This document shows, in pieces, positions 680 to 8,747 of a stretch of 9,140 nucleotides of DNA. Both the position numbers and the translations under genes were made by a program. The stretch lies in IMG/VR virus record IMGVR_UViG_2698536549_000008; one strand, 5' to 3'. The first letter of the stretch is position 1. Each line of letters opens with the position of its first letter. Below the pieces are notes generated by a model that worked only from the letters and a program-made list of their open reading frames with translations, had not been told where the DNA came from and ran no database searches. The DNA is from a virus. Lineage: Duplodnaviria; Heunggongvirae; Uroviricota; Caudoviricetes.

Positions 680-894
680 GTTTTGCTGATGCGCCGTATC
701 GTCGCCGTATTCCCGTATTAACAGAGACCGCAGCCCGACAGGGAGACTCCTCTGCGAGAGTGTGCGGGGATAATCAAAAACGATACACACCGGGGTTTAC
801 CGCGTTAACGGAGCGCGGCGTTGTCCCCTCATAGTCGCCTGTCCGGTGCGATGGTGGAAGAAACTGGATTTGTTGCAACTGATAACCATTATCA

Positions 895-1115
895 TTTTCT
901 CGGGTCCTTTCCGGCATATGGACCCGTTACGGGGCGGCGACCTCGCGGGTTTTCGCTATTTATGAAAATTTTTCGGGAAAAAGCATGTCAGTTCTTCTTG
1001 TTGTTAACCTATTGTTTTTAAAGAAATAATCATCAAGAAAGAAACGACATCAGAACGCTGAAAAATCTGTCTTTTTTGGCATTTCATGTCGTAACTGATT
1101 TTTGATAAGGAATTG
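895..1115 (+). promoter_or_regulatory. cos: cos region: cosQ-like segment, cosN, and cosB-like terminase-binding region ahead of Nu1
   Basis: 896-931 (TCTCGGGTCCTTTCCGG...GACCCGTTACG) resembles the lambda right-end sequence before cosN; 944-981 (CGCGGGTTTTCGCTATTTATGAAAATTTTTCGGG) is near-identical to the first bases after the lambda left cohesive end; further downstream lie segments resembling lambda R3/R2/R1 (e.g. GTTCTTCTTGTTGTTAA, GAAAGAAACGACA). cosN to Nu1 ATG is 188 nt, 190 in lambda. Confidence 0.8.
932..943. other. cosN: cosN: 12-nt cohesive-end sequence GGGCGGCGACCT (terminase nicking site)
   Basis: Exact match to the lambda 12-nt 5' cohesive end as recalled, in the expected position between the lysis genes and Nu1. 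Confidence 0.8.
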
Positions 1116-1119
1116 CTGA

Positions 1120-1668
1120 ATGAATGTTAATAAAAAGAAGCTTGCTGAAATCTTTAATGTCGATATACGCACTATTGATCGCTGGCAAACTCAGGGGCTC
1201 CCTCAGATATCTGGTGGAGGAAAAGGTGTTGAGGTCATCTTTGATTCTGCGAAGGCGATCGAATGGTATGCTCAGCGCGAAGCTGATATTGAAAATGAAA
1301 AACTCCGTAAAGAGGTCGAGGATTTGAGGGCGGCCAGCGAATCAGACCTTCAGCCCGGCACCATTGATTACGAACGTTACCGACTGACGAAGGCACAGGC
1401 AGATGCACAGGAACTGAAAAATGCCCGCGACAGTGGGCAGGTCATTGATACAGGGTTTTGCCTTTTTGCTCTGGGAAGACTGGCACAGGAGATCTCTGCC
1501 ATTCTTGACTCCATTCCATTGTCCATGCAGAGACAGTTTCCGGCACTGACGCCCGCTATGCTTGATTTCCTGAAAACCGATATAGCAAAGGCGGCAAACC
1601 GATGCGCATCAACGGCAGAGAAGTTACCGGAGATGCTGGATGAATACCTCAGAGAAGCAGCTAAATAA
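1120..1668 (+). CDS. Nu1: Terminase small subunit (gpNu1-like)
   Basis: 182 aa; [41 protein letters not shown]... aligns with lambda gpNu1 (MEVNKKQLADIFGASIRTIQNWQEQGMPVLRGGGKGNEVLY...), including the N-terminal HTH and the GGGKG motif; shallow SD-like AAGGA about 10 nt upstream. Confidence 0.93.
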
Positions 1669-3568
1669 CTTTGCTGTTGTTTGTGGAGTGGCACTTCGTG
1701 GGCTTTTACGCCCACTGCCTGTAACCACCGTTGAATGGGCCGATCAAAATTATTATTTGCCCCCGGAGTCCTCTTATCTTGCTGGGCGGTGGAAGACGTT
1801 GCCCTTTCAGGTGGCAATAATGAACTGCATGGGTAATGACCGGATCCGCACAATTAATCTTATAAAATCAGCTCGAGTCGGTTACACCAAAATGCTGATG
1901 GGCGTTATTGGTTACTTTATTGAGCATAAAAACCGTAACAGTCTTCTGTTTCAGCCTACGGATTCTGCCGCTGAAGATTTTATGAAGTCTCATGTGGAGT
2001 CAACATTACGGGATGTTCCCTGTCTGAAAATTCTTTCCCCCTGGCTGGGGCGTAAGCACCGGGATAACACACTGACATTAAAAAGATTCACGTCCCGTGT
2101 GGGGTTCTGGTGCCTGGGTGGTGCTGCCGCCAAAAACTACCGTGAAAAATCAGTGGATGTGGTCTGCTATGACGAACTTTCCTCATTCGAGCCGGATGTC
2201 GAAAAAGAGGGCTCGCCAACCCTGCTGGGGGATAAGCGTATTGAGGGCTCGGTATGGCCAAAATCTATTCGCGGCTCGACGCCTAAAATAAAAGGCACCT
2301 GCCAGATCGAAAAAGCGGCCAACGAGTCGGCGCATTTCATGCGTTTTTATGTGCCCTGCCCGCACTGTGGGGAGGAGCAGTATCTGAAATTTGGCGATGA
2401 ATCCACGCCTTTTGGCCTTAAATGGGAGAAGGACAGCCCCGAAAGCGTTTTCTATCTCTGTGAACATCATGGCTGCGTGATCCATCAGTCTGAGCTTGAC
2501 CAGAGCAACGGGCGGTGGATCTGTGAAAACACGGGCATGTGGACCCGTGACGGCCTGACGTTTTTCAGCGCTGCGGGTAATGAAATTCCGCCGCCGCGCT
2601 CCATCACTTTCCATATCTGGACGGCGTACAGTCCGTTCACCACCTGGGTACAGATAGTCTATGACTGGCTGGATGCACTGAAAGATCCCAACGGCCTGAA
2701 AACTTTTGTGAACACCACGCTGGGCGAGACCTGGGAAGAGGCCGTGGGCGAAAAACTCGATCACCAGGTGCTGATGGATAAGGTCGTGCATTACACGGCA
2801 GCGGTGCCTGCCCGGGTGGTTTATCTGACGGCGGGCATTGACTCGCAGCGTAACCGTTTTGAGATGTATGTCTGGGGATGGGCTCCGGGAGAGGAAGCCT
2901 TTCTGGTGGATAAAATCATCATTATGGGGCGTCCTGATGAGGAAGAGACGCTGTTACGTGTGGATGCGGCGATCAACAAAAAATACCGCCATGCAGACGG
3001 TACCGAAATGACCATTTCCCGTGTCTGCTGGGACACCGGGGGGATCGATGGTGAAATTGTTTATCAGAGATCAAAAAAACACGGTGTTTTCCGGGTGCTG
3101 CCGGTAAAAGGCGCATCTGTCTATGGCAAGCCGGTGATCACCATGCCAAAAAACCGCAATCAGCGGGGCGTGTATCTGTGTGAAGTGGGGACAGACACCG
3201 CAAAAGAAATTCTCTATGCCCGTATGAAAGCCGATCCCACGCCTGCGGATGAAGCCACGTCGTATGCCATCCGTTTTCCTGATGATCCGGAGATTTTTTC
3301 GCAGACAGAGGCGCAGCAACTGGTGGCGGAAGAACTGGTGGAGAAGTGGGAAAAAGGAAAGATGCGTCTGCTGTGGGATAACAAAAAGCGGCGTAACGAA
3401 GCGCTGGACTGCCTGGTGTATGCCTACGCGGCATTACGTGTGTCCGTGCAACGCTGGCAGCTTGATCTGGCTGTACTGGCAAAATCCCGGGAAGAAGAGA
3501 CGACCCGGCCAACCCTGAAAGAACTGGCAGCGAAGCTGTCCGGAGGAGTGAATGGTTACAGTCGCTGA
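1640..3568 (+). CDS. A: Terminase large subunit (gpA-like; packaging ATPase and cos endonuclease)
   Basis: 642 aa, collinear with lambda gpA (641 aa) over the full length (e.g. [20 protein letters not shown] at residues 76-84 = nt 1865-1891, [37 protein letters not shown]); start overlaps the Nu1 3' end by 29 nt as in lambda. Confidence 0.95.
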
Positions 3569-8312: not shown

Positions 8313-8319
8313 TCCGTGA

Positions 8320-8349
8320 GCGGGGGCGATATGCCCCCGTGTCTTTTTT
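8320..8349 (+). terminator. Putative rho-independent terminator or attenuator after the major capsid gene
   Basis: GC-rich hairpin CGGGGGC(8321-8327) / loop GATAT / GCCCCCG(8333-8339), followed by TGTCTTTTTT (8340-8349), starting 8 nt after the E stop. Confidence 0.6.
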
Positions 8350-8363
8350 CACAGAGGGCTGAG

Positions 8364-8747
8364 ATGGCAACAAAAGAAGAAAATCAGAAACGTCTTCGTG
8401 AACTGGCTGGCCTGCTGGGGCGCGAGGCAGATATGTCGGGGAGTGCAGCGGATATTGCTCAACGTGTGTCTGAGTGGGAAGAGGAGCTTGCTGTTTCCCC
8501 GGAAGGCATTATGCACTCTGATGAGAGCGGGTCTGATCAAAATTACACAGACGATGGTGAGCAGTTGAACAACACTGATGCTCCGGATGATGTTAAAGCC
8601 GTCCGGGTACGGAAGTGCCTGCAAGTGATGGGGTATTGCCCGGAGACAGGTCGTCCCGTTGAGCTGGCGTTACGGGGTATGCGTGTTCTGGTGCCATCAT
8701 CACTGGCAACGGCCATGATACAGCACGGAGCGGCTGAGTATGCGTGA
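8364..8747 (+). CDS. FI: DNA-packaging accessory protein (gpFI-like)
   Basis: Position between E and FII as in lambda; 127 aa, similar to lambda gpFI length, acidic central region; GAGGG SD 5 nt upstream of ATG 8364. The track ORF start at 8316 lies inside the terminator hairpin with no SD, so the internal ATG is preferred. Sequence similarity to lambda FI is weak, so the call rests largely on synteny. Confidence 0.75.
   Translation: MATKEENQKRLRELAGLLGREADMSGSAADIAQRVSEWEEELAVSPEGIMHSDESGSDQNYTDDGEQLNNTDAPDDVKAVRVRKCLQVMGYCPETGRPVELALRGMRVLVPSSLATAMIQHGAAEYA

Follow-up and report, generated by a model that had tools for sequence, protein, structure and literature searches.

This locus raises two questions: whether an exact copy of the lambda cohesive-end sequence, lying inside a stretch of viral DNA, belongs to a complete packaging site, and which packaging specificity such a site would have. 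Lambda-like cos sites are defined by 12-base 5′ cohesive ends related to those of lambda, accompanied by the subsites cosQ, cosN and cosB (PMC4669245). Only three packaging specificities, those of lambda, 21 and N15, had been documented as of 2015 (PMC4669245). The whole stretch of DNA that was analysed, 9,140 nt in length, is referred to here as the window, and base pairs of the site are numbered such that bp 1 is window position 932. The sequence indicates, with a probability that we put at about 0.9, that positions 901-1100 are the complete cos of a lambda-like (cos-type) prophage of E. coli with a head module of the phage 21 type and a recognition allele of the 21 branch. The cos site is ordinary and apparently complete; its recognition part, together with the small terminase subunit (TerS), is an uncharacterised variant that is closest to phage 21.

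The 12-mer GGGCGGCGACCT is present once in the window, on the + strand at 932-943, as the preliminary description had stated. Shuffling the sequence 200 times gave a mean of 0.08 matches with at most one mismatch, and any such match was found in 16 of the 200 shuffles. The full 16-bp cosN, CG-GGGCGGCGACCT-CG (930-945, + strand), is identical at 16 of 16 positions to both lambda and 21, and GTTACG is shared with lambda in addition to these 16 bp. By inference from lambda (PMC9026076), the top strand would be nicked at 931/932 and the bottom strand at 943/944. Window positions 700-1130 were aligned with the right and left ends of lambda joined together (NC_001416), and a second, three-way alignment compared the window, lambda and phage 21. 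Because the flanks align as well, the 12-mer is not an isolated match; with a single occurrence and aligning flanks, a chance match was ruled out. Among the related loci described below, the pattern at bp 7-12 of cosN agrees with the published functional asymmetry of this subsite, and the window carries the lambda/21 sequence there.

To the left of cosN, the packaging-termination signal cosQ (GGGTCCT, 902-908, + strand) matches lambda and 21 at seven of seven positions each. It starts 30 bp before bp 1, as it does in both of these phages, at the position annotated in the phage 21 record OL657228, and it is contained in a block, CGGGTCCTTTCCGG (901-914), that is identical to lambda. The block GGGTCCTTTCCGG is near-invariant over about 70 distinct left arms of related loci. 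The spacer between cosQ and cosN (909-925, + strand) agrees with lambda at 9 of 17 positions and with 21 at 8 of 17. Its segment 915-925 varies freely among relatives and in the window contains GGACCC, the inverted cosQ core, so that a perfect 7-bp inverted repeat (CGGGTCC at 901-907, GGACCCG at 920-926) pairs cosQ with the sequence left of cosN. We considered this inverted copy as a hairpin or a second termination signal and rejected it, as the spacer around it is hypervariable and just three of six loci of the same TerS class have it; it is probably fortuitous and non-functional. An Rfam scan of the window returned zero matches, and a promoter and terminator scan of 650-1300 gave nothing above chance.

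To the right of cosN, bp 13-45 (944-976, + strand) are identical to lambda at 32 of 33 positions and to 21 at 30 of 33. The I2 element, which in lambda is a bent spacer essential for an early packaging step and in which bp 30-35 are critical (PMC4856287), corresponds to bp 18-50 (949-981, + strand), with the critical TATGAA at 961-966 the same as in lambda. Near-identity to lambda spans only about 80 bp, however, and ends at about bp 46 (window 977); the region that follows, cosB (bp 46-188, 977-1119), is 57% identical to lambda and 61% identical to 21. An earlier claim of near-identical flanks on both sides is therefore borne out for 901-914 and 944-976, but not for the cosQ-cosN spacer or for cosB. 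Similarly, the proposal that conservation is higher at the packaging site than in the genes is correct for cosQ, cosN and I2 when lambda is the reference, but does not extend to cosB, whose 57-61% identity is no better than that of the Nu1 gene (62% DNA identity to lambda, 64.5% to phage 21).

Within cosB, mismatch searches located three R boxes. R3 (CATGTCAGTTCTT, 984-996, bp 53-65, + strand) is the predicted critical TerS-binding site; its 16-bp box (981-996) has coordinates equal to those of phage 21 R3, bp 50-65. At bp 56 (987) it has G, as in 21, and at bp 59 (990) it has A, which is unique to the allele class of the window. R2 (GATGTCGTTTCTT, 1039-1051, bp 108-120, − strand) is inverted relative to R3 and R1, and its position is the same as that of lambda R2 and 1 bp off that of 21 R2 (bp 107-122). 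R1 (CATGTCGTAACTG, 1085-1097, bp 154-166, + strand) is the weakest box, with three mismatches to the 13-mer consensus; it starts at bp 154, compared with bp 153 in 21, where the annotation covers bp 150-166, and bp 155 in lambda. The three boxes are thus in + − + orientation, each within 1 bp of its phage 21 counterpart, and the earlier suggestion of R-like segments within 985-1100 was well placed. Between R3 and R2 lies I1, an IHF-like sequence (AAACAATAGGTTA, 1005-1017, bp 74-86, − strand) with one mismatch to WATCAANNNNTTR. It is one of three IHF-like matches in the whole window and sits exactly at the annotated I1 coordinates of phage 21. This cosB is therefore of the complex kind, with the order R3-I1-R2-R1, an inverted R2 and an IHF-like site between R3 and R2.

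The 13-mer consensus for the R boxes was built from the same three window copies. As an independent check, the 9-mer TCATGTCGG, taken from the phage 21 R boxes and allowed up to two mismatches, gave 26 matches in 18 kb of strand. It matches at all three sites, on the right strand and within 1 bp, an outcome with a chance probability of about 1e-7 by arithmetic from this match count. A finder of direct and inverted repeats run on 880-1125 missed the R family, whose copies have diverged too far to share exact seeds; its output was limited to two short inverted pairs without apparent significance. A comparison of ungapped identity to phage 21 between boxes and inter-box sequence (Fisher p 0.18) was uninformative owing to the 1-bp offset of R2 and R1.

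The terminase genes follow directly. TerS, or Nu1, is a protein of 182 aa encoded at 1120-1668 on the + strand (Pfam Phage_Nu1, E 1e-81), and its start codon falls at bp 189, as does that of phage 21 TerS. The protein matches the PDB entries 1J9I (the DNA-binding domain of lambda Nu1, E 3e-25) and 6HN7 (E 3e-42). A winged helix-turn-helix DNA-binding domain occupies codons 1-68 (1120-1323, + strand), with the recognition helix RTIDRWQT at residues 17-24 (1168-1191, + strand). The amino acid identity of TerS is 62% with lambda Nu1, 64% with 21 gp1 and 100% with the TerS of phage PhiR5_1; between the lambda and 21 proteins it is 52%. Identity to 21 is distributed unevenly, at about 80% over residues 1-100 and 20-55% over the last 80 residues or so. 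The large subunit TerL, or gpA (1640-3568, + strand; Pfam GpA_ATPase and GpA_nuclease), is 65% identical to lambda in amino acids. At the TerS-binding end, over the first 30 or so codons, it has diverged from lambda as well as from 21, and the remainder is 21-like; in 30-aa bins, identity to 21 rises through 30, 70, 87 and 93% to 100%. With cosN, cosQ at its proper distance, I2, a complex cosB, and Nu1 and gpA directly downstream, the window has the sequence features of a lambda-like cos.

Discrimination between lambda and 21 depends on a small number of positions. The TerS recognition helix comprises residues 17-24 and contacts R3 at bp 55-63 (PMC4669245, PMC9026076), and genetic work as summarised in PMC4669245 assigns the lambda/21 discrimination to residues 20 and 24 and to bp 56 and 59. 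In the window the helix is RTIDRWQTQ (D20, T24) and bp 53-61 of R3 read CATGTCAGT, with G at bp 56 and A at bp 59. Lambda has the helix RTIQNWQEQ with CGTTTCCGT at bp 53-61 (T at bp 56, C at bp 59), and phage 21 has RTIERWQSQ with CGTGTCGGT (G at both positions). None of the four lambda determinants (bp 56 T, bp 59 C, Q20, E24) is present in the window, which has G, A, D20 and T24 in their places, and its R core is CATGTC[A/G] rather than CGTTTCC. Judged against 21, the window has the expected G at bp 56, A at bp 59 of R3 with G at the equivalent position of R2 and R1, and conservative replacements at residues 20 and 24. At the position of the second G of 21, both R2 and R1 of the window carry T. 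The label of a lambda-type site given in the preliminary description is thus right as to the family of cos, although the specificity determinants (R core, helix and G at bp 56) belong to the phage 21 branch.

To place this combination among its relatives, 147 related loci were gathered from species-representative genomes and from IMG/VR, and cosN and TerS were both readable in 105 of them. The class of the recognition helix and the R3 core are associated without exception in these 105 loci, an association that we read at the level of classes because the loci are related and non-independent and because many of the lambda-class ones are lambda contamination of unrelated assemblies. Helix class QN..E/D (62 loci) occurs with the R3 core C.TTTC[CT]GT, class ER..S/T/M (33 loci) with C[AG]TGTCGG, class DR..T (six loci) with CATGTCAGT, which contains CATGTCAG, and class TA..S (three loci) with CAGATCCGT (CAGATCC). 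This co-variation by class favours the earlier proposal that the R elements would match the DNA-binding domain of the adjacent Nu1. Short contigs that are 99-100% identical to lambda (L025-L036, L043-L054 and L059-L061) come from assemblies of unrelated organisms that include Kitasatospora, Paenibacillus, Bradyrhizobium, Psychrobacter, Oceanobacillus and Limosilactobacillus; such lambda-identical contigs are almost certainly lambda DNA contamination.

Loci with a helix of the form RTIT[AG]WQSQ (L084, L085 and L120 of IMG/VR, and L008) carry CAGATCC in all three R boxes. L008 is the partial record SerU-LTIIb, with the helix RTITGWQSQ and CAGATCC boxes. TerS of L084 and L085 is 91% identical overall to that of the window, and their R boxes are nonetheless different. 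No description of this class was found in the literature examined. The left arm, which bears cosQ, is unlinked to the helix class: the same left arms are found with lambda-type and with 21-type helices, which implies recombination at the shared cosN/I2 core.

Comparison with individual phages shows which parts of the site are shared. Phage 21 has the same cosQ and cosN, the same order and orientation of R3, I1, R2 and R1 at coordinates within 1 bp, a common R core CATGTCG and a recognition helix that differs at two of nine positions. It differs from the window in having G rather than A at bp 59 of R3, where the window also has T at bp 62, in having TGTCGG rather than TGTCGT in R2 and R1, in having E20 and S24 in place of D20 and T24, and in the unrelated C-terminal 80 or so residues of TerS and first 30 or so residues of TerL (20-55% identity). 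Lambda shares the tripartite cosB with its IHF site, identical cosQ, cosN and TATGAA, and an R2 at bp 108-120, but has the R core CGTTTCC, the helix RTIQNWQEQ, TerS and TerL proteins that are 62% and 65% identical, and head genes with 50-66% DNA identity. The cosB of the N15 type is simple: it has one R3, lacks an IHF site, and its rR2 lies at a distance, within the TerS gene, in contrast to the three R boxes and I1 of the window, and N15 TerS is 36% identical to that of the window. Phages phi80 and 434 have the same packaging specificity as lambda. PhiR5_1 and E. coli prophages such as that of NZ_CM143728 have the same allele as the window in the same context between Rz and the head genes.

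Phages of the PhiR12 type (PV340549-PV340554) share with the window cosQ, cosN, I2, TerS's C-terminal half, TerL and the head genes; beyond the cassette the DNA is 95% identical. At its N-terminus their TerS has a domain (MATQTEVARHLSLTDRQLRRLQ...) unrelated to that of Nu1, and their cosB repeats are CATGTCCGGTT and AACCGGACATG (L009, PhiR12_2_star, 817-1011). This arrangement appears to represent a natural whole-domain swap of the recognition cassette only. The C-terminal 80 or so residues of TerS and the first 30 or so of TerL (window 1441-1730) are 50-75% identical to those of the PhiR12 type (L009, PhiR12_2_star) but dissimilar to those of lambda and of phage 21 (L160). This C-terminus of TerS and N-terminus of TerL look like a third TerS-TerL docking pair, one that would be separable from the DNA-binding domain.

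The allele itself is widespread in E. coli. Of 5,426 complete E. coli genomes, 548 contain window positions 944-1330 at 80% coverage or more, and the number of records in which identity reaches at least 95% is about 219. The 17-mer GCATGTCAGTTCTTCTT has 15 exact matches in IMG/VR, eight of them in a cos context; six of these eight show the TerS of the window directly, and in the other two a 1-bp change in the length of a T run between R2 and R1 shifted a frame reading made at fixed offset. Six distinct copies of cosB within the allele have nine variable columns, none in the R3, R2 or R1 boxes. This lack of variation in the boxes has a probability of about 0.02 by our own arithmetic and is weakly significant. 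The variable base within I1 (1009) sits at the unspecified NNNN of the IHF consensus. In PhiR5_1 (PV340545; host given in the record as E. coli C), TerS is 100% identical and the cos region is 98-100% identical to the window. The same cos/TerS allele is carried by the Stx2d prophage of E. coli STEC434 (NZ_CP129383; L006 17367-19669), in which 944-1330 is 100% identical and an IS21-family element, ISEc12, is inserted between Rz and cos. None of the records with this allele starts at a cohesive end, PhiR5_1 having been deposited in prophage (permuted) order. The cos site is unannotated in PhiR5_1 and in the prophage records, where the only label is 'terminase small subunit / Nu1', and no published description of the allele or of the PhiR phages was found in open-access text.

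The genes around the site are those of a lambdoid late region. The lysis gene Rz (268-678, + strand; Pfam Phage_lysis) is the last late gene before cos. It is broken by a run of 99 N (508-606), a scaffold gap or masked stretch that stands in for 155 bp, as sized by comparison with the 155-aa 'lysis protein' of NZ_CM143728. An ORF of 188 aa (268-834) was considered as an unusual Rz fusion and dismissed as a frame-shift artefact of the N run, the true stop being TAA at 676-678. After TerS come gpA, W, the portal, an S49 protease/scaffold, D, E, FI and FII, so that none of the nine packaging and head ORFs of the window is truncated, and each matches its family strongly. DNA identity to 21 is 91% for A (1724-3568), 99% for W, 96% for each of B, C and D, 91% for E and 90% for FII, and the head genes beyond about 2100 are, FI excepted, within 90-99% of 21. 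Against lambda the same genes, FI included, have 44-66% DNA identity. The impression that the adjacent proteins are clearly diverged was accordingly an effect of comparing them with lambda only, and it does not survive comparison with 21, with which A, W, B, C, D, E and FII share 90-99% of their DNA sequence.

FI (8316-8747) has 59% identity to 21 between neighbours, E and FII, of about 90%, and gpFI is 384 bp in the closest prophage compared with 432 bp here; FI is another mosaic patch in the head operon. By the same comparison cosB, Nu1 and the first 30 or so codons of A are the block least conserved relative to 21, a swapped specificity cassette. Against a phage collection the window is 96% identical to PhiR5_1 and, from 1724 onward, 93% identical to phage 21. 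Its best match over the whole length (99.4%) is a lambdoid prophage of about 45 kb in the chromosome of E. coli CFIAFB20190157, where cos lies between 'lysis protein' and 'terminase small subunit'. Since this nearest match is a chromosomal prophage and cos lies between Rz and the terminase and head genes, the window is in prophage or circular order and not in the linear order of virion DNA, as had been supposed.

Several other explanations of the site were weighed. That it has true lambda packaging specificity, its R boxes being merely drifted lambda R sequences, might be argued from the virtual identity of cosQ, cosN and I2 to lambda and from the right halves of R3 and R2 (TTCTTCTT and TTTCTTTCTT), which resemble those of lambda. 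However, the R core is CATGTC[A/G] rather than CGTTTCC, the helix has D, R and T at residues 20, 21 and 24 where lambda has Q, N and E, and in all 62 loci with a lambda-type helix the core is TTTC[CT] and never TGTC. The G at bp 56 is also adverse, as Glu24 of lambda TerS is reported to clash with the G:C pair found at this position in phage 21, and bp 59 is not C (PMC4669245). We regard lambda specificity as very unlikely. In enterobacterial PICIs a cosN of the helper type is coupled to a cosB that differs (PMC9026076), which would allow the site to be the cos of a PICI or other satellite that mimics the cosN of its helper. The genes of the window refute such an element: Rz precedes the site, and directly after it come a TerS and a TerL of its own and the portal, protease, decoration, capsid, FI and FII genes; moreover, the R boxes match the class of the adjacent TerS, and the nearest relative embeds the site in a full lambdoid prophage of about 45 kb. 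A satellite origin is thus extremely improbable. The site could instead be a relic in a defective prophage, no longer used, a view favoured by the integrated or permuted arrangement from which the window comes, by the 99-N gap in Rz, and by relatives of which one has the IS21-family element between Rz and cos and another a frameshifted capsid gene. Nine full-length packaging and head ORFs, the intactness of every cos subsite and the invariance of the R boxes among diverged copies make this improbable, and the identical TerS and 98% identical cos of PhiR5_1, whose record is that of a phage propagated on E. coli C, argue that the system works.

The relation to phage 21 is more evenly balanced. 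It is somewhat probable that the TerS and cosB of the window are functionally interchangeable with those of phage 21, having the same specificity and differing by neutral drift only. The window shares the core CATGTCG with R1 and R2 of 21, the helix changes are only E20D and S24T, both conservative, TerS residues 1-100 are about 80% identical, and there are intermediate alleles in which the helix is RTIERWQTQ, R3 is like that of 21 and R1 is like that of the window. Yet the differing residues, 20 and 24, are exactly the reported lambda/21 discriminators; bp 59 of R3, reported to be critical, is A here and G in 33 of 33 ER-class loci; and R2 and R1 have T in place of the second G of 21. We put forward only tentatively that the D20/T24 helix, the R3 with CATGTCAG and the R2 and R1 with TGTCGT might constitute a specificity not interchangeable with phage 21, lambda or N15. 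Non-interchangeability of the window TerS/cosB with those of 21 in particular is possible on these sequence differences, though we lean towards doubting it.

Our preferred reading, a complete lambda-like cos with a recognition allele of the 21 branch, suggests a mechanism by analogy with lambda and 21. TerS dimers would bind the three R boxes of cosB through their winged helix-turn-helix domains. IHF acting at I1 would fold the DNA such that R3 and the inverted R2 are brought face to face, with R1 assisting, and the TerL anchored in this manner would nick cosN at positions 12 bp apart to yield 5′ GGGCGGCGACCT cohesive ends. The bent I2 spacer would be needed at an early step, and cosQ, 30 bp upstream, would be read when the motor arrives at the next cos, at which point packaging would terminate. 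The subsites presumably read by the large subunit or at the termination step, cosQ, cosN and I2, are near-unchanged relative to lambda and 21. The recognition allele (CATGTC[A/G] with RTIDRWQTQ) travels as a cassette with the diverged C-terminus of TerS and N-terminus of TerL.

As a cos site this locus is textbook biology. It keeps the cutting and termination signals of lambda and 21 and sits between the two best-studied specificities, and it offers a natural variant for testing how TerS reads R sequences, as it differs from 21 at residues 20 and 24 and at bp 59. If its TerS and cosB are indeed not interchangeable with those of phage 21, lambda or N15, they would represent a further natural specificity class among phages with lambda-like cos sites. 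The allele also occurs in Stx2d prophages, and having a packaging specificity in common bears on cross-packaging, interference and recombination among co-resident prophages of STEC. The related loci include at least five helix/R-box classes and one unrelated DNA-binding domain (PhiR12), all with one common cosQ-cosN-I2 core, which suggests that packaging specificity among enterobacterial lambdoid phages may be far more varied, and more like a cassette, than in the three cases so far characterised.
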